The notes beneath the pieces are model-generated. The model ran no database searches. It saw only the letters and a program-made list of their open reading frames with translations, and had not been told where the DNA came from. Made by a program: the position numbers and the translations under genes. This document shows, in pieces, positions 4,432 to 53,100 of a stretch of 64,000 nucleotides of DNA (positions are counted from its first letter, which is position 1; every line of letters starts with the position of its first letter). Source of the DNA: Octopus vulgaris (Eukaryota). The stretch is taken from NCBI GenBank assembly GCA_951406725.2, contig OX597842.1, positions 18,972,001-19,036,000 on the forward strand, written 5' to 3'.

Positions 4432-5135
4432 GTGCAGGAGTGTCTGTGTGGTAAGTAGCTTGCTAACCAACCACATGGTTCCGGGTTCAGTACCACTGCG
4501 TGGCATCTTGGGCAAGTGTCTTCTGCTATAGCCCCGGGCCAACCAAAGCCTTGTGAGTGGATTTGGTAGATGGAAACTGAAAGAAGCTTGTCGTATATAT
4601 GTATATATATATATGTATGTGTGCGTGTATGTTTGTGTGTCTGTGTTTGTCCCCCTAGCATTGCTTGACAACCGATGCTGGTGTGTTTATGTCCCCGTTA
4701 CTTAGCGGTTCGGCAAAAGAGACCGATAAAATAAGTACTAGGCTTACAAAGAATAAGTCGCGGGGTCGAGTTCCTCGATTAAAGGCGGTGCTCCAGCATG
4801 CCCGCTGTCAAATGACTGAAACAAGTAAAAGAGTAAAAGAGTATATATATGTATGTCTGTGTATGTGATTGTGTGTCTGTGCTTGTCCCCCTAGCATTGC
4901 TTGACAACCGATGCTGGTGTGTTTATGTCCCCGTTACATAGCGGTTCGGCAAAAGAGACCGATAAAATAAGTACTGGGCTTAAAAAGAATAAGTCCTGGG
5001 GTCGATTTGCTCGACTAAAGGCGGTGCTCCAGCATGGCCGCAGTCAAATGACTGAAACAAGTAAAAGAGTATATATTTGTATGTCTGTGTATGTCTGTAA
5101 TGACTGAAACAAGTAAAAGAGTAAAGAGTAAAGAG
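4432..5135 (+). mobile_element. SINE family A with tandemly duplicated 3' half
   Basis: Full copy ~4432-4842, followed by a second 3' half at ~4870-5068 and an extra tail. Confidence 0.85.
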
Positions 5136-5440
5136 TAAGTGAACTGCTGCAAGTAATTTATTAGTTGGTGCATTCAGTGAGTGAAGTTAGTGAAAAGAAG
5201 TTAGTGAGACAGAATTTTTGTTGTCTTCCTTTTAGTTTAGTCTTTTCACCATTGTCCAGAGCATCCAGTAATTTTTACTCTTTTTTTCCACCTGAAACAG
5301 TTGATAGAATCGAAATTTTATGTTAGTCATAAGTATTCCTAAAAACCACAGGAGTAAATGTCAAAGAGTGATACGAAATGAAATATTGATTTCTTCTGGA
5401 CAAAACACAATAAACTACATTGATTCAAATTTCATATCTC

Positions 5441-5858
5441 TTTTTACTCTTTACTCTTTTACTCGTTTCAGTCATTTGACTGCGGCCATGCTGGAGCACC
5501 GCCTTTAATCGATGAACTCGACTCCGGGACTTATTCTTTTGTAAGCCCGGTACTTATTCTATCGGTGTCTTTTGCCGAACCGCTCAGTAACGGGGACATA
5601 AACACACCAGCATCGGTTGTCAAGCAATGCTAGGGGGACAAACACACACACATAAACATATACACTCACATACATATATATATATACATATATACGACAG
5701 GCTTCTTTCAGTTTCCATCTACCAAATCCACTCACAAGGCTTTGGTCGGTCCGGGGCTATAGTAGAAGACACTTGCCCAAGGTGCCATGCAGTGGGACTG
5801 AACCCGGAACCATGTGGTTGGTAAGCAAGCTACTTCACCACACAGCCACTCCTGCGCC
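5441..5858 (-). mobile_element. SINE family A
   Basis: Reverse complement of 2701-3140. Confidence 0.88.
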
Positions 5859-13358: not shown

Positions 13359-13361
<3 letters not shown>

Positions 13362-14180
13362 CTAAATGCAAAAGAAATAGACAAAGAAAAATCCCAGCAA
13401 TGGTTGAGAAGCTCAGGACTAAAAGCAGAGACAGAGAGATTTTTAATTGCAGCACAAGACCAAAGCCTCCCCACCAGAAATTACCAAAAACATGTAATGA
13501 AAAGAAATATAACAAGTAACTGCAGAATATGTGGAGATGGACAAGAAACAATAAATCATATTATCTCTGGCTGCCCAGTCCTGGCTAAGAAGGAATATAT
13601 TCACAGACATGACAGAGTTGGAACCTACATACACTGGAAGCTATGCCAACATTGTGGAATAACAACAGAAAAAAGATGGTATAGGCACACACAAGAAAAG
13701 GTCACAGAAAACGAGAAAGCAACCATACTCTGGGATATGCCGATACACACAGATAGAGAAATTAAGGCCAACAGACCAGATATAGTTGTCAGAGATCATG
13801 AAGGAAAAAAACGCTTTCTAATTGATGTATCAATACCGGCAGATGACAACGTGTCTCTAAAAGAAATGGAGAAACTTTCAAAATACAAAGACCTGGAAAT
13901 AGAGATAACCGGAATGTGGAATCTAAAAACAGAAACAATTCCTATCATAGTAGGTGCATTAGGCATGATAAAACAATATTCAGACAAATACATAACAAAA
14001 ACACCAGGACTTACAAACACATATAACATACAGAAAATTGCACTACTAGGCACTGCACACATCCTACGCAGAACACTTTCCATACAATAACTATCAGAGC
14101 ATCACAACAAATCACAGCAAGGCGCACAGAGCTGCGCTCGGTAGTGAAGTGAAAGCACGCTATAAAAATAAAACTACTGA
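13359..14180 (+). mobile_element. 5'-truncated R4/Dong-like non-LTR retrotransposon (CCHC finger + restriction-like endonuclease) inserted in (TAA)n
   Basis: ORF 13404-14090 contains CRICGDGQETINHIISGC (CCHC), RHD, RPDIVV...LIDVSIP and EKLSKY. (TAA)n on both sides (13308-13357; 14183-14256). Confidence 0.9.
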
Positions 14181-23349: not shown

Positions 23350-23710
23350 ATCGCGGATTTTAGCGACGAAAATATTTTGACAAATTAAACTTAAATGTTG
23401 GAGTGAATCGAACGGCTTTTGTGTGTTTCTTAAATGGCTTATAAACACCTCCCACGCTGCAATTGTTTTCGTTTCAGCACACGATCTCAGATCAAATTAC
23501 TTGCTATGCGAGTACATCTCCGTAATTCCGAAAGCTTGAGCCAGGCTACCAAAACTCTGAGGACAGCCGTTACTTGTTGCTTGAGAAGAATAACAGCTAA
23601 GCAACAGCTTCATTTCATTAGACACTGCATCTCACTGAAGGTTTACCCGAAAAGGATTTACAATACAGTCGAAGCACTGAACCTGAAGAAGGGACAAGCG
23701 TCGAGACTAA
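23350..23710 (+). mobile_element. Penelope-like element 5' end (pLTR plus start of ORF); related pieces at ~27176-27300 and ~51588-51932
   Basis: MRVHLRNSESLSQATKTLRTAVTCCLRRITAKQQLHFIRHCISLKVYPKRI resembles the PLE N-terminal HF..C....V.PK motif. Preceded by a hammerhead-like 3' half; flanked by (TA)n. Confidence 0.55.
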
Positions 23711-27120: not shown

Positions 27121-27318
27121 TGACTTACATATATATCATGAGTTAACTGTTACTTTCTTTGATGCAGCACGGGGTTTTATCAGTGAACAGCTCCCGGTTT
27201 CAAAGCGACGAAAATATTTTTGCAAATTAAATTTAAATGTTGAAGTGAATCTAACGGTGTGTTTTTCTATGGATTATAAACACTTTCATGATGCAATTGT
27301 GTACAGACATATATATAT

Positions 27319-27511: not shown

Positions 27512-27832
27512 CAGATATATTGTTACGGAGGCAAGAAAAAGTAAACGAACAGAAACATTATGCCCCTTGTTCCATTAGTTGGAACCGAACCGGCGCTCCA
27601 GTTGTTCAGGACAATGGTATTTCCGTTGTCCTGTCAAAGACCACGATTATTAATGATCCAAGGTATTGAAATATGGTCCCAACACGGTCACGGAAAGTTT
27701 TTAAAAATAAAATTCTACCCGTTATATATACGAGTGGCGTATATATACCAGAAACCGTGAGCGGAGCGGACAAGACAGTGAGTTGGAGATGGTGGAGACA
27801 AAGATGGTGGAGACAAAGATGACAGGCGTGGT

Positions 27833-30800
27833 CTGAATGCATTTGATTTGGTTTTTCGAACTCTGTATTATGTTTGAATGCATTTGATTTGGTTTTCGAA
27901 CTCTGTATTATGTTTGAATGCATTTGATTTGGTTTTTCGAACTCTGTATTATGTTTGAATGAATTTTATTTGGTTTTTCGAACTCTGTATTATGTTTGAA
28001 TGCATTTGATTTGGTTTTTCGAACTCTGTAATGCATTTATTTTGTTATTATGTTTGAATGCATTTGATTTGGTTTTTCGAACTCTGTATTATGTTTGAAT
28101 GCATTTGATTTGGTTTTTCGAACTCTGTATTATGTTTGAATGCATTTGATTTGGTTTTTCGAACTCTGTATTATGTTTGAATGCATTTGATTTGGTTTTT
28201 CGAACTCTGTATTATGTTTAAATGCATTTGATTTGGTTTTTCGAACTCTGTATTATGTTTGAATGCATTTGATTTGGTTTTTTTCGAACTCTGTATTATG
28301 TTTGAATGCATTTGATTTGGGTTTTCGAACTCTGTATTATGTTTGAATGCATTTGATTTGGTTTTTCGAACTCTGTATTATGTTTGAATGCATTTGATTT
28401 GGTTTTTCGAACTCTGTATTATGTTTGAATGCATTTTATTTGGGTTTTCGAACTCTGTATTATGTTTGAATGCATTTGATTTGGTTTTTCGAACTCTGTA
28501 TTATGTTTGAATGCATTTGATTTGGTTTTTCGAAATCTGTATTATGTTTGAATGCATTTGATTTGGTTTTTCGAACTCTGTATTATGTTTGAATGAATTT
28601 GATTTGGTTTTTCGAACTCTGTATTATGTTTGAATGCATTTGATTTGGTTTTTCGAACTCTGTATTATGTTTGAATGCATTTGATTTGGTTTTTCGAACT
28701 CTGTATTATGTTTGAATGCATTTGATTTGGTTTTTCGAACTCTGTATTATGTTTGAATGCATTTGATTTGGTTTTTCGAACTCTGTATTATGTTTGAATG
28801 CATTTGATTTGGTTTTTCGAACTCTGTATTATGTTTGAATGCATTTGATTTGGTTTTTCGAACTCTGTATTATGTTTGAATGCATTTGATTTGGTTTTTC
28901 GAACTCTGTATTATGTTTGAATGCATTTGATTTGGTTTTTCGAACTCTGTATTATGTTTGAATGCATTTGATTTGGTTTTTCGAACTCTGTATTATGTTT
29001 GAATGCATTTGATTTGGTTTTCGAACTCTGTATTATGTTTGAATGCATTTGATTTGGTTTTTCGAACTCTGTATTATGTTTGAATGCATTTGATTTGGTT
29101 TTTCGAGCTCTGTATTATGTTTAAATGCATTTGATTTGGTTTTTCGAACTCTGTATTATGTTTAAATGCATTTGATTTGGTTTTTCAAACTCTTTATTAT
29201 GTTTGAATGCATTTGATTTGGTTTTTCGAACTCTGTATTATGTTTGAATGCATTTGATTTGGTTTTTCGAACTCTGTATTATGTTTGAATGCATTTGATT
29301 TGGTTTTTCGAACTCTGTATTATGTTTGAATGCATTTGATTTGGGTTTTCGAACTCTGTATTATGTTTGAATGCATTTGATTAGGTTTTTCGAACTCTGT
29401 ATTATGTTTGAATGAATTTGATTTGGTTTTTCGAACTCTGTATTATGTTTGAATGCATTTGATTAGGTTTTTCGAACTCTGTATTATGTTTGAATGCATT
29501 TGATTTAGGTTTTTTCCGAACTCTGTATTATGTTTGAATGCATTTGATTTGGTTTTTCGAACTCTGTATTATGTTTGAATGCATTTGATTTGGTTTTTCG
29601 AACTCTGTATTATGTTTGAATGCATTTGATTTGGTTTTTCGAACTCTGTATTATGTTTGAATGCATTTGATTTGGTTTTTCGAACTCTGTATTATGTTTG
29701 AATGCATTTGATTTGGTTTTTCGAACTCTGCATTATGTTTGAATGCATTTGATTTGGTTTTTCGAACTCTGTATTATGTTTGAATGCATTTGATTTGGTT
29801 TTTCGAACTCTGTATTATGTTTGAATGCATTTGATTTGGTTTTTCGAACTCTGTATTATGTTTAAATGCATTTTATTTGGTTTTTCGAACTCTGTATTAT
29901 GTTTGAATGCATTTGATTTGGTTTTTCGAAATCTGTATTATGTTTGAATGCATTTTATTTGGGTTTTCGAACTCTGTATTATGTTTGAATGCATTTGATT
30001 TGGTTTTTCGAACTCTGTATTATGTTTGAATGCATTTGATTTGGTTTTTCGAACTCTGTATTATGTTTGAATGCATTTGATTTGGTTTTTCGAAATCTGT
30101 ATTATGTTTGAATGCATTTGATTTGGTTTTTTCGAACTCTGTATTATGTTTGAATGCATTTGATTTGGTTTTTCGAACTCTGTATTATGTTTAAATGCAT
30201 TTGATTAGGTTTTCGAACTCTGTATTATGTTTGAATGCATTTGATTTGGTTTTTCGAACTCTGTATTATGTTTGAATGCATTTGATTTGGTTTTTCACAC
30301 TCTGTATTATGTTTGAATGCATTTTATTTGGGTTTTCGAACTCTGTATTATGTTTAAATGCATTTGATTAGGTTTTTCGAACTCTGTATTATGTTTGAAT
30401 GATTTGATTTGGTTTTTCGAACTCTGTATTATGTTTGAATGCATTTGATTTAGTTTTTCGAACTCTGTATTATGTTTGAATGCATTTGATTTGGTTTTTC
30501 GAACTCTGTATTATGTTTAAATGAATTTTATTTGGTTTTTCGAACTCTGTATTATGTTTGAATGCATTTTATTTGGTTTTTCGAAATCTGTATTATGTTT
30601 AAATGCATTTGATTTGGTTTTTCGAACTCTGTATTATGTTTGAATGCATTTGATTTGGTTTTTCGAACTCTGTATTATGTTTAAATGCATTTGATTTGGT
30701 TTTTCGAACTCTGTATTATGTTTAAATGCATTTGATTTGGTTTTTCGAACTCTGTATTATGTTTAAATGAATTTTATTTGGTTTTTCGAACTCTGTATTA

Positions 30801-40452: not shown

Positions 40453-42132
40453 TGGATCTTTTCACTTTGACCGGCAGATTTAAAAAATAATTTTTTTTCT
40501 AACTAAACACTTCTGAACTTCGCATATACTGGTAGAATGTGTTTTTTAAAAAAACATCTTTTTCTCTTGGCTTTATTGAGAAAATTCTATAGTTTGTAAG
40601 ATATTTGGGATCATTTCGGTTTGAACGGCAGTTTTTTAAAATAATTTCCACGTAACTAAACACTTTTAAACTTCGTATACTGGTAGAATGTGTTTATAAA
40701 ACATCTTTTTCTCTTGGCTTTATTGAGAAAATTCTATAGTTTGTAAGATATTTGCTTTTTTTCTTCTTCAATTTCTGCAATTTCGACCAATCAATGACGT
40801 CTATTGAGGTGAAAACATTCGGATCTTTTCTGTTTGAACGGCAGATTTTTAAAATAATTTCCATGTGACTAAACACTTTTAAACTTCGATTACTGGTAGA
40901 ATGTGTTTATAAAACATCTTTTTCTCTTGGCTTTATTGAGAAAATTCTATAGTATGTAAGATATTTGTTGGGTTTTTTTTTCTTCAATTTCTGCAATTTC
41001 AACCAATCAATGACATCTTTTGAGGTAAAAAAAACATTCTGTACCGTATGAATATGTCCCTCATTTAAGAAACAGATTGGGTTTATTTACATTTCTGAAG
41101 AAAAAAAGATGCCCTTTCCGGATCTTTTCGGTTTGAATGGCAGTTTTTTCTAGCGGTGTCATATGAAATTGTCACCCATAATTATGACCCTAGTATCGAT
41201 CTATTGCATTTCAATCTGTTTTAGGGTTAGGGTTGGTTAGGGATGGGGGAAGGGTATCTGCTTTTCTTCAGAAATGTAAATAAACCCAATCTGAACCGGT
41301 AACCATGTGGCTCGTAAGCAAGCTCCTTACCACACAGCCACTCCTGTGCCTAAGTTTTGTCTTTTTTTTTTAAATCCTTTTTGGTTGATGCTTTATGTTA
41401 AATTTTTCTGCTTTCTTTGCATTTTTGTTTTCAAAAATATGTTATATAGGAATGGGTGTGACTGTCATAAGAAGCTTGCGGGTCTTTTCCTTTTGAACGG
41501 CAGACAATTTCTAGTTAACTTTGAAACTTCGTATACTGGTAGAATGTGTCAAAATAAAACGTAATTTTTCTTGGTTTTATTGAGAAAATTCTATAGTTTG
41601 TAAGATATTTTCACTATAAAATCAAGCATTTTGGCAATTTTAACCAATCAAATACGTCCATTTGGAGTCAAAGCATTCTGTGCCGTATGAATATGTCCCT
41701 CCTTTAAGAAACAGATTGGGTTTATTTACATTTCTGAAGAAAAAAAGATACCCTAACCCTAGTCCTAAAATAGATTGAAATGCAATAGATCGATACCAAG
41801 GCCATAATTATTGGTGACAATTTCATATGACACCGCTACGGAAAATGGGATTTTTTTCTAGCGGTGTCATATGAAATTGTCACCAATAATTATGGCCCTG
41901 GTATCGATCTATTGCATTTCAATCTATTTTAGGGTTAGGAGAATGGTATCTTTTTGTCTTCGCAAATGTAAATAAACCCAATCTGTTTCTTAAACAAGGG
42001 ACATATTCATACAGTACGGTTTGTTTTGACTCCAAATGGACGTATTTGATTGGTTAAAATTGCCAAAATGCTCGATTTTAAAGTGGGAATATGTTACAAA
42101 CTATAGAATTTTCTCAATAAAACCAAGAAAAA
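40453..42132. mobile_element. Cluster of related non-autonomous elements (ggatcttttc-start, agggttagg motif; possibly Helentron-associated), ending in an inverted pair at 41565-42132
   Basis: Repeated ggatcttttc..tttgaacggcag starts and gcggtgtcatatgaaattgtcacc blocks in both orientations. Class assignment is tentative. Confidence 0.55.
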
Positions 42133-49829: not shown

Positions 49830-50435
49830 AGGCAGCAAGCTGGCAGAGACGTTAGCACGGCAGGCGAAATGCTTAGTGGTATTTCGTCCGCCGCTGCGGT
49901 CTGAGTTCAAATTCCGCCGAGGTCGACTTTGCATTTCATCCTTTCGGGGTTGATAAATTAAGTACCAGTTATGCACTTATCCGTTTGTCCCCTCTGTGTT
50001 TAGCCCCTTGTGGGTAGTAAAGAAAACAGGTATATACTCTCTTTACTTGTTTCAGTCATTTGACTGAGGCCATGCTGGAGCACCGCCTTTAGTCAAGCAA
50101 ATCGACCTCGGGACTTATTCTTTGTAAGCCCAGTACTTATTCTATCGGTGTCTTTTGCCGAACCGCTAAGTGACAGGGACATAAACACACCAGCATCGGT
50201 TGTCAAGCAATGCTAGGGAGACAAACACAGACACACAAACACATACTTACATATATATACATACATATATACGACGGGCTTCTCTCAGTTTCCTTTTACC
50301 AAATCCACTCACAAGGCATTGGTCGGCCCGGGGCTATAGCAGAAGACACTTGCTCAAGATACCACGCAGTGGGACTGAACCCGGAACCATGTGGTTGGTT
50401 AGCAAGCTACTTAACACACAGCCACTCCTGCGCCT
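49830..50435. mobile_element. SINE family C (+, ~49830-50030) tail-to-tail with SINE family A (-, ~50036-50435)
   Basis: Matches to the other copies. Confidence 0.85.
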
Positions 50436-51587
50436 ATATATGGATGTTTCTTTATATAGTCTTTTATTGACGTCTCTTCCGAAGGCCCCTACTCAGTCAG
50501 GAAATTTAGTTTTTATGGTATTGAGTCTTGTGATGTTTGGATGACCCCTATGTGTGTGTGATGTCTGTATGGTTATGTGTGTGACCCCTTGGGTCTTTAT
50601 TGTTTGTGTTTATTGCTCTGTAGTTCAGAACGTTTGACCTTTGCTGGTGTTGAGACATTTGGGAGTTGTGTGTGTGAATTGGGTTGTGTGCTTGTGAGGG
50701 TGGTGTCGACGGTAGTGATTGGGGTGATGTTTGTTATTGAAGGTACTAGTGTGGGTGCTGTTGGTGGAAATATTTGTCAATTTGTTTTCAAAGGTGTTTC
50801 CTACCTGTCAGATTTTTGTGTTGATATTTCACCTGTTGACATTTTGCCATTCAGACTCTTTGTCAGCACCATCCCCCTGTGAAGGACACGCCTGGCTGCC
50901 CTAATAGGTGAGGGACAAATTTGTAGGAATTTCTGTTGTTGTTTTTGCTGCTGTTTGCTGTGTGGAAACCCTAAATGTTGGTGAATTCTTTGTTCTGTTG
51001 GCTACTGTTGTTGTTGTTGTTCTTGTTGTTGATTGATAGATATTGCTTTTCCAGCTCTAGTGGTCACCTGCCTCTGCTCTTGTTGTGGTTGTTGTTAAGC
51101 AATATCTTCAATCAGCAACCTCATCATATCATTTACTGTACAATGACTATAATAGCCCTGATGCAGTACCAGGCACTGGGTCTCATGGCTTCTGATCTTA
51201 ACTGATTGGAAGTGTTATCATGTACATTGTTTTGTCTTGGTATAAAAGATGGGCAACAGCAAATATTCTGCTCAATACCACAGATTTGCTTGTCAGTTGT
51301 TTGACCTTAACCAGTTGAGCATGTCCCTTAGTGGCTGACGATACGTGCATCTCTGATCACGAGCAGAAGTAGTGGGGGAGCATCATAGCCATGTGTTGAG
51401 AGGGATTCTTTGGGGTTTGAATAGTTCACCTCTGGAAACATGGGTGGTTCTTTCAACATCCTTAAACAACCCTTATTCAGGGACCGTTTGAGCAGGAGGG
51501 GCTACTCAACCTGAAGAAAATTCTAACTGGGCCCCACCTGCAAGGTCATATGCTGTTTATCTTGATATGAGATCACCATGTCCTAAT

Positions 51588-51932
51588 CATGAAAATAATT
51601 GCAGCGTGGAAGGTGTTTGTAAGCCATTTAAGAAACACACAAAAGCCGTTCGATTCACTTCAACATTTAAGTTTAATTTGTCAAAATATTTTCGTCCCTT
51701 TAAGACCGCCACCTGTTCACTGACAAAAATCTGTGCTGCATCTTGTCAGTGAACAGGTGGCGGTCTTAAAGCGAGGAAAATATTTTGACAAATTAAACTT
51801 AAATGTTGAAGTGAATCGAACGGATTTTATGTGTTTCTTAAATGGCTTATTAACACCTTCCACGCTGCAATTGTTTTCATTCCAGTACACGATCTCAGAT
51901 CAAATCACTTGCTATGCAAGTACATCTCCGTA
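51588..51932. mobile_element. Inverted pair of Penelope-like termini, each with a variant hammerhead-like motif
   Basis: ~51588-51726 is the reverse complement of ~51743-51880; the sequence matches 23370-23525. Confidence 0.7.
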
Positions 51933-53100
51933 ATATTTTTCTAATATTTAAACAAAAATCACAGTTTGTAACTGAACAAGTTCAAAAATTTCTTTTGAAT
52001 TAGTTTTTTTTTTTTTGTTTTGTTTGACTGAATGGATTAGTTAGCTTCATTCTCAAGGATCAACTATCTTTTGAACTATTTAGTTGCTATAGAATGGATT
52101 TGCATTCTCTAGTTTCTTGTTTGAGAAAGAAGAATTCAAAGAGAAAAATATTATCAAGAATAAAAATTGACAGAAACCACTGTCTTTACCAATGCTAGAT
52201 AATCCTTCTATCAGATGCAGGATAATTTACTAATTATTATTAATAATTATTATTATTAATTATTTACTAATTCATTTTTATCATGAGATTTTGGTTTTGG
52301 TTAATTTACTGATTATTCATTTTTATCATAAGATTTTGGTTAATTTATTAATTATAAATAATTTACTAATTATTCATTTTTATCATGAGATTTGAGTTTT
52401 GGTTAATTTACTTTCACCATAGCCCTTAATATTTTCTTGGATGTTTTATCCCCTCCCAATTCTTTATACCAGCCATTTTCATTGTTATGTTAAAATTTTG
52501 AGCCACCAAATTTAATTACACAAGAATGCCAGGAAATCCTTATACAACACTTGTTACGAATTTAATAAATAAGAACGTTTCAGTTTTTTGTTTGAATAAT
52601 GAGGAAATTAATTATATTTAAATAATAAGAAAAATAAATGCGCCCTTTTTAAAGACTAGCCAGGCTCATGGGCCCAGTTTCCCGATTTCTATGGCATGTA
52701 TTCCCCAGCTGGACGGGACGCCAGTCCATCACAGCGTTACTCATTTTTGCCAGCTGAGGGGACTGGTGCAACGTGGAATGAAGTGTTTTGCTCAAGAACA
52801 CAACGCGTCGCCCAGTCCAGGAATCGAAACCACAATTTTACGATCATAGTGCTGACACCCTAACCCAGAAGCCTCCACTATTTAAATAATGTGTAAATCT
52901 ATATGCTGCCCCTGGTAAACGATGGACTGATCCATTTTTGTGCTAAAAAAGTCAGTCCCCTTTGTTAATGCTTCGTAACCTTTCTAAATAATGGACTGAT
53001 CTGAAGAACATTTAATGAATTAGACATAGTAGTCTAAGATATTTGTGTCTGTCGACCCTTTTTCTTACCATGTTCCTGTTTAAATATATTGCCTTTGTTT

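Follow-up and report, generated by a model that had tools for sequence, protein, structure and literature searches.

The G at position 8 is among the most conserved nucleotides of the hammerhead ribozyme. A C3G/G8C laboratory double mutant is said to have been described by Martick and Scott in 2006, and Lunse et al. reportedly surveyed small hammerhead variants associated with Penelope-like elements (PLEs) in 2017. The 2'-OH of position 8 serves as the general acid, while the base there forms a pair with position 3 (PMC6155905, PMC8495972). With G8C alone the rate drops some five orders of magnitude, part of which C3G brings back (PMC8495972); in the PLE hammerhead PAc, C3G/G8C gives a partial rescue in vitro, where cutting needed the protein of the element (PMC11167929). 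In a laboratory G3-C8 variant C17 was reported to be less active than G17, with the data not shown in PMC3884650.

The closest described systems are the minimal type-I hammerheads of metazoan PLEs (Cervera and de la Pena 2014, PMC4209133). The octopus family described here resembles them in its location in pseudo-LTRs, in an extra nucleotide that falls after position 9 and before 10.1, in the G10.1-C11.1 pair, in a short palindromic stem III and in its many solo and inverted copies. Unlike them, it has the core GUGANCA, and its extra base, H in the published consensus, is G. The 56 motifs of Fig. S3 in that paper comprise 53 with C3-G8, two with U3-A8, one with U3·G8 and none with G3-C8. Compensatory change of the 3-8 pair has natural precedents in U3-A8 hammerheads (Perreault et al. 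2011, PMC3088659; Schistosoma Cercyon PLEs, PMC4209133), where two transitions keep the pyrimidine-purine order, whereas G3-C8 takes two transversions, reverses that order and removes the purine from position 8. Laboratory C3G/G8C mutants have the same 3-8 pair and partly rescued activity (PAc, PMC11167929; PMC3884650; PMC8495972), but they were engineered, while the octopus pair has become fixed across natural copies that number in the thousands and have U17 in place of C17. In the accessible sections of the literature G3-C8 was found only as a laboratory mutant, and Lunse et al. 2017 or Hammann et al. 2012 could already list the natural variant. As an element, the family is like Neptune/Nematis-type PLEs (PMC8557442) in its reverse transcriptase (RT) with a C-terminal GIY-YIG-like domain, its CX3CxxC linker motif, its insertion at TA repeats and its inverted 5'-truncated copies, a likeness drawn from features. 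What appears to be new is the natural G3-C8 pair in a minimal PLE hammerhead, fixed in a young, abundant lineage and in its older sister, and not a new kind of system.

The family was encountered in a stretch of 64,000 nucleotides from Octopus vulgaris (contig OX597842.1, positions 18,972,001 to 19,036,000), hereafter the window, whose first letter is position 1. A preliminary description had placed swapped hammerhead motifs, or parts of them, at four sites, and all four were located as described when the window letters were read back. They belong to the following features, in which L053 is the coding element treated below:

51562..51934 (no strand assigned): gene-less PLE insertion, a palindrome of two inverted pseudo-LTR heads, 87-91% identical to L053 by blastn
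51743..51791 (plus strand): type-I minimal hammerhead with damaged stem II, with intact relatives elsewhere in the genome
51677..51727 (minus strand): inverted hammerhead copy with two stem II mismatches, G3 at 51720
27123..27300 (plus strand): old, decayed head of the same family, 81% identical to L053
23351..23710 (plus strand): young element fragment, 99.7% identical to L053

The insertion at 51562..51934 is one family head with its inverted partner. The palindrome core spans 292 nt (51589-51880) with arms that are 92% identical, and the plus arm reaches into the reading frame of the element as far as approximately codon 31. Because they are the arms of one palindrome, the plus and minus hammerhead copies are not independent and represent one insertion. 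Both arms read in the order stem I, GUGAACA, extra G, stem II, GAA, AAUAUU, U17, stem I. In the plus copy, stem I is formed by 51743-51748 and 51786-51791, the core has G3 at 51749 and C8 at 51754 with the extra G at 51756, stem III (AAUAUU) occupies 51779-51784, and the predicted cut site lies just 3' of U17 at 51785. The type-I stem order around the core is not found in the window copies, and the damage to stem II that had been reported is present in both arms: the plus copy has one G-G mismatch and has lost the closing G-C pair, and the minus copy has two G-G mismatches. Folding z-scores of the arms (-0.03 and -0.58) are no better than those of shuffled sequences, against -3.86 for an intact family copy, and both window copies are predicted to be inactive.

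An inverted duplicate of window positions 50235-52601 lies about 50 kb downstream (L001, G000:C29:19075416-19078571), with 99.7% identity over at least 2.4 kb. Three of the six differences between the duplicate and the window fall within about 25 nt of one hammerhead arm, a clustering that suggests gene conversion between palindrome arms.

At 27123..27300 the core GUGAACA is retained (27183-27189, G3 at 27183), stems I and II are broken and the fold has a z-score of +1.73. The fragment at 23351..23710 begins within stem II and includes the 3' half of a hammerhead without the core, the 5' UTR and the first 92 codons. Its ATG is at 23434, 83 nt further downstream, and its translation is a 100% protein match to the elements L052 and L053, in agreement with the earlier placement of a hammerhead 3' half just upstream of a PLE-like frame.

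The coding element itself is best seen in the near-complete L053, where two pseudo-LTRs of 1.1 kb (304-1421 and 4581-5682, 98.4% identical) flank a frameshifted RT/endonuclease frame, with an inverted segment (1-309) at the 5' side. The hammerhead motif is present in each pseudo-LTR, which bears out the association with PLEs proposed earlier. The start codon of the RT/GIY-YIG frame lies 92 nt downstream of G3, and a further element, L211, has an open frame of 1,025 codons. The predicted model of the RT/endonuclease part has a pLDDT of 89.3, and its top three structural matches are telomerase RTs; GIY-YIG-like and CX3CxxC motifs were spotted by eye in the translation. Searches by sequence were less telling. 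Pfam, at E thresholds of 0.001 or 5, gave no match to the L053 and L052 frames save one weak unrelated one, and among seven homologues it gave only sub-threshold RVT_1, in two of the seven. A PDB sequence search with a single element protein found no match, and one with a profile found two weak matches to bacterial RTs.

The order of a telomerase-like RT followed by GIY-YIG (the latter assigned by eye) in one frame, together with direct pseudo-LTRs, an inverted 5'-truncated copy and tails ending inside the frame, is that of a PLE. At least 46 endonuclease copies are at least 99% identical, and G3-C8 was found downstream in all 30 of the young endonuclease copies fetched (the 30th via L052), which places the swap in the youngest lineage. 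The family is a recently active, endonuclease-bearing PLE with thousands of copies. The 3' ends of copies cluster at ATG+33 and ATG+93 (40 and 53 of 100 copies in these bins), positions that match the two sites inside the PAc reading frame at which RT starts (PMC11167929), and TA repeats lie 3' of 68 of the 100. A non-LTR retrozyme, that is, short non-coding tandem repeats with hammerheads, was considered and rejected, since a coding element belongs to the family and its copies are mostly scattered heads; at two loci, L021 and L068, the family does form short tandem runs. At L051 a canonical CUGACGA hammerhead of another family adjoins a family copy (minus strand, near 731), and at L059 (1587-3161) a TA repeat connects a family head, in frame, with an RT/endonuclease fragment that is PLE-like but different.

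How fixed the swap is was determined across the whole 2.8-Gb genome. An exact pattern of core, stem II and GAAA gave 5,592 matches and its reversed control none, so the motif is not a chance one, and the same pattern with C3-G8 had 0 matches in the genome. Since these counts presuppose the core, 100 copies of this family (family A) were also picked on the sequence 3' of the ribozyme, blind to the core. Of these, 77 span it: 76 have G3-C8, one has G3·G8 and none C3-G8. Among the 77, U4 is kept in 77, G5 in 75, A6 in 76 and A9 in 77, the extra G follows A9 in 76, and GAAA, U16.1 and U17 are the majority state of the family. A second sample of 100, anchored on both flanks, includes older copies and was counted by eye; six of its listed rows are not family members, and G3-C8 is present in 82 of the remaining 94, C3-G8 in none. 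Contigs from public runs (labelled organisms A, B and C) had, among the rows listed, no variant of at least 2% at G3 or C8, and their variation lies at CpG sites and in loop II.

In its intact form the family has type-I stems I and II around the core together with U4, G5, A6, A9, G12, A13, A14, the A15.1-U16.1 pair and H17, as well as the short palindromic stem III and the extra nucleotide after A9 of minimal PLE hammerheads. The octopus motif fits the structural definition of a hammerhead, while failing the literal consensus C3-U-G-A-N-G8-A (CUGANGA). The preliminary description thus fared well in its central points: the natural swap holds in the core-blind sample, stem II is intact in most family copies, the register of stem I, GAAA and palindromic stem III is confirmed in intact copies, and CUGANGA searches do overlook a core of GUGANCA. 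Its notion of a non-canonical lineage stands in part. The swap is unusual. Neither the extra nucleotide nor the UUU site is out of the ordinary among PLE hammerheads, in which U17 and UUU sites were already known, the oyster row having UUU (PMC4209133); only G as the identity of the extra base is less common.

Relatives of family A show how the 3-8 pair has changed. Families B1 and B2 have C3-G8 and the stem II GUCAC/GUGAC (5,365 matches, control 1), and their proteins are 44-50% identical to that of family A over the parts compared. B2 is abundant, with thousands of copies, and has C at position 9 (A9C) in 19 of 25 sampled copies (L443-L472, L071-L100). Families C and E are older related families. 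In E (L057, L244, L262, L264, L266) the pair is U3-A8 and stem II is compensated (GUUGC/GCAAC); C (L151-L180) has U3·G8 and C3·A8 subgroups, the latter making up about seven of some 30 copies by eye. G3-C8 is also the state of family F, in 19 of 29 copies, with none showing C3-G8. F, in which the identity of copies to the majority is 85%, is an older sister of A that retains G3-C8 with compensated stems. The hammerheads of A and F differ in 11 of 49 columns, all at free or compensated positions, namely N7, loop II, a compensated outer pair of stem I and a stem III shorter by 2 nt in F (AAUU), with the palindrome retained. Their identity is no higher in the ribozyme (38/49, 78%) than downstream of it (111/140, 79%).

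A tree built on the sequence downstream of the ribozyme (33 rows, with long branches and outgroups not resolved) joins A and F in a clade with support of 99/100 and nests the G3·G8 copies inside A. The swap to G3-C8 is a single evolutionary event. In an alignment of 13 hand-picked copies from seven families, whose rows are related, the 3-8 pair is GC in five, CG in three, UA in two, UG in two and unpaired in one; two stem II pairs covary, and 96% of cells pair, against 9-55% in slid controls. The covariation score was reached by none of 500 shuffles, a count that is not a probability because the rows are related and hand-picked. Positions 3 and 8 thus pair as G-C here and as C-G, U-A or U·G in relatives, so the 3-8 pair covaries within one PLE clade.

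Exact matches with G8 number 174, and nearly all of the 100 listed have G3. A G3·G8 sub-lineage occupies about two dozen distinct insertion sites, mostly on contig 16 between 1.2 and 9.0 Mb (loci L334-L351, L106, L107, L212, L213 and L009), and its copies share one loop sequence while their flanks differ. Repeated copying took place from a source whose core was unpaired, and the burst on contig 16 suggests local hopping from one source element. In five inverted pairs G8 is in one arm only, which points to a change after insertion. G3·G8 was considered as an evolutionary intermediate and rejected, since it is nested in G3-C8 copies, the older F already has G3-C8, and the five pairs are one-armed.

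The ends of insertions bear on whether cut or uncut RNA serves as template. Of 100 family 5' ends, 51 lie 53-62 nt upstream of the predicted cut, a pile-up about 58 nt before it and 22 nt before G3 (L355-L442; the window equivalent is near 51727-51742), and 13 further copies start at -43, which is an indel relative to the reference. Only eight fall within -3 to +10 of the cut and none exactly at it. Because the 5' ends pile up upstream of the predicted cut, most templates were uncut. This footprint is not specific to the swap, since the C3-G8 sister B2, in which all 28 copies span the ribozyme, and PAc in vitro behave alike (for B1, only eight of 30 copies could be parsed). As marks of the cut site the 5' ends were accordingly set aside: they show no peak there, and B2 does not differ. 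At the main 5' end, 15 of 24 copies have a G that is not part of the element (p 1.7e-6 at 18% G), which resembles a cap copied from the RNA and would mark the start site. Directly upstream of this end the sequence is similar to a 3' splice site.

In an intact family copy both stems form, with pair probabilities of 0.71-1.00 at the z-score of -3.86 given above. The AAUAUU stem III is self-complementary and its homoduplex weak (-0.2 kcal/mol), and in the predicted minimum-energy fold a G3·U17 wobble lengthens stem I; U17 is found in families A and F, C17 in B1 and B2. By analogy with the described systems, we think it probable that the window holds decayed inverted heads of a recently active PLE with a natural G3-C8 pair, whose intact form likely self-cleaves slowly, as a dimer or aided by protein. 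The reversed 3-8 pair would hold the 2'-OH of residue 8 in place as general acid, as in the laboratory double mutants, and the self-complementary stem III would form between two copies, so that a slow ribozyme would need a second copy for stem III or the help of a protein. U17, a hypothesis from one event, would avoid a G3-C17 trap that locks an inactive form, and slow cutting would leave capped, uncut RNA as the usual template for reverse transcription. More tentatively, G3-C8 with U17 may possibly be a selected slow hammerhead, arisen once in an octopus PLE lineage and kept through a split of the family into an active one, which tunes cutting so that capped, uncut RNA stays the main template.

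It is also conceivable, though we find it doubtful, that the motif derives from a hammerhead but has lost the need to cut. Stems I and II would then persist as a structure that binds protein or belongs to the 5' UTR, and G3-C8 would be the product of two drifted changes that happen to pair. Lineages with G3·G8, A9C and C3·A8 have all amplified, templates are mostly uncut, and in the accessible sections of PMC11167929 ribozyme mutants of PAc left in vitro insertion unchanged and the cut site was the end of no read; Naiad PLEs, moreover, proliferate without canonical hammerheads (PMC8557442). A structure freed from cutting fits less well with the pattern of what has been kept. U4, G5, A6, G12, A13, A14, A15.1 and U16.1 are the majority state in every family sampled, while N7 and loop II are free to change and catalytic positions are kept; stem III remains self-complementary despite the 2-nt indel between F and A; and G3·G8 is nested within G3-C8 and rare (174 against 5,592 exact matches).

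Full efficiency of the ribozyme in vivo, with a neutral swap and with uncut templates due only to the need for a partner copy, is improbable. It would agree with a swap that survived the separation of A from F and is present in the youngest lineage, and with the same uncut footprint in a C3-G8 sister family, but laboratory G3-C8 hammerheads regain only partial activity (PMC8495972, PMC11167929) and, in the accessible part of PMC4209133, minimal PLE hammerheads cut slowly even when the core is the usual one. A chance likeness inside the 5' UTR of a repeat is very improbable and, on the alignment to the C3-G8 sister families, is largely excluded. In its favour, the core of a hammerhead has few letters, a relaxed pattern meant to find other G3-C8 families whose extra base is not G stayed near background (2,063 matches, control 1,703) and an Rfam scan of the window gave no hammerhead family among the best 150 of 239 matches, yet the motif stands at the homologous position in sister PLEs with 5,365 matches against one in the control, has covarying stems and lies in the pseudo-LTR, where PLE hammerheads are expected.

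The 3-8 tertiary pair gains evolutionary support from this natural example, in which G3-C8 has become fixed while the lineage goes on copying itself. It also exposes a blind spot of standard motif searches, which miss more than 5,500 copies in this one genome, and it provides natural variants with which to ask whether Penelope elements require ribozyme cutting. If the family does have a selected slow hammerhead, the clade would be a natural series of cores (C-G, U-A, U·G, G-C, G·G and A9C) with measurable copy success, the role of PLE hammerheads would be directly testable, and surveys based on CUGANGA would be missing whole successful families.

Beyond the octopus genome, metagenome relatives of the family comprise two contigs, too short to contain a pseudo-LTR. 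In a phage contig from IMG/VR (L354, 280-345), directly upstream of a gene start, a GUGAUCA core occurs together with a stem II of 7 bp and is preceded by a hairpin of 5 bp, with no clear stem III; it is a single, chance-prone match. The window itself holds other repeats. An open stretch of 243 codons on the plus strand (13359-14087) has what we take to be C-terminal features of a non-LTR retrotransposon (a Cys-His motif and a KPD-like nuclease motif). A large 41-bp minisatellite array, with copies up to 99% alike, covers about 27770-29200 and beyond, and further long inverted repeats, of an unrelated repeat family, lie at 41565-42132 (281 nt, with a 6-nt spacer) and 4453-5835 (298 nt).
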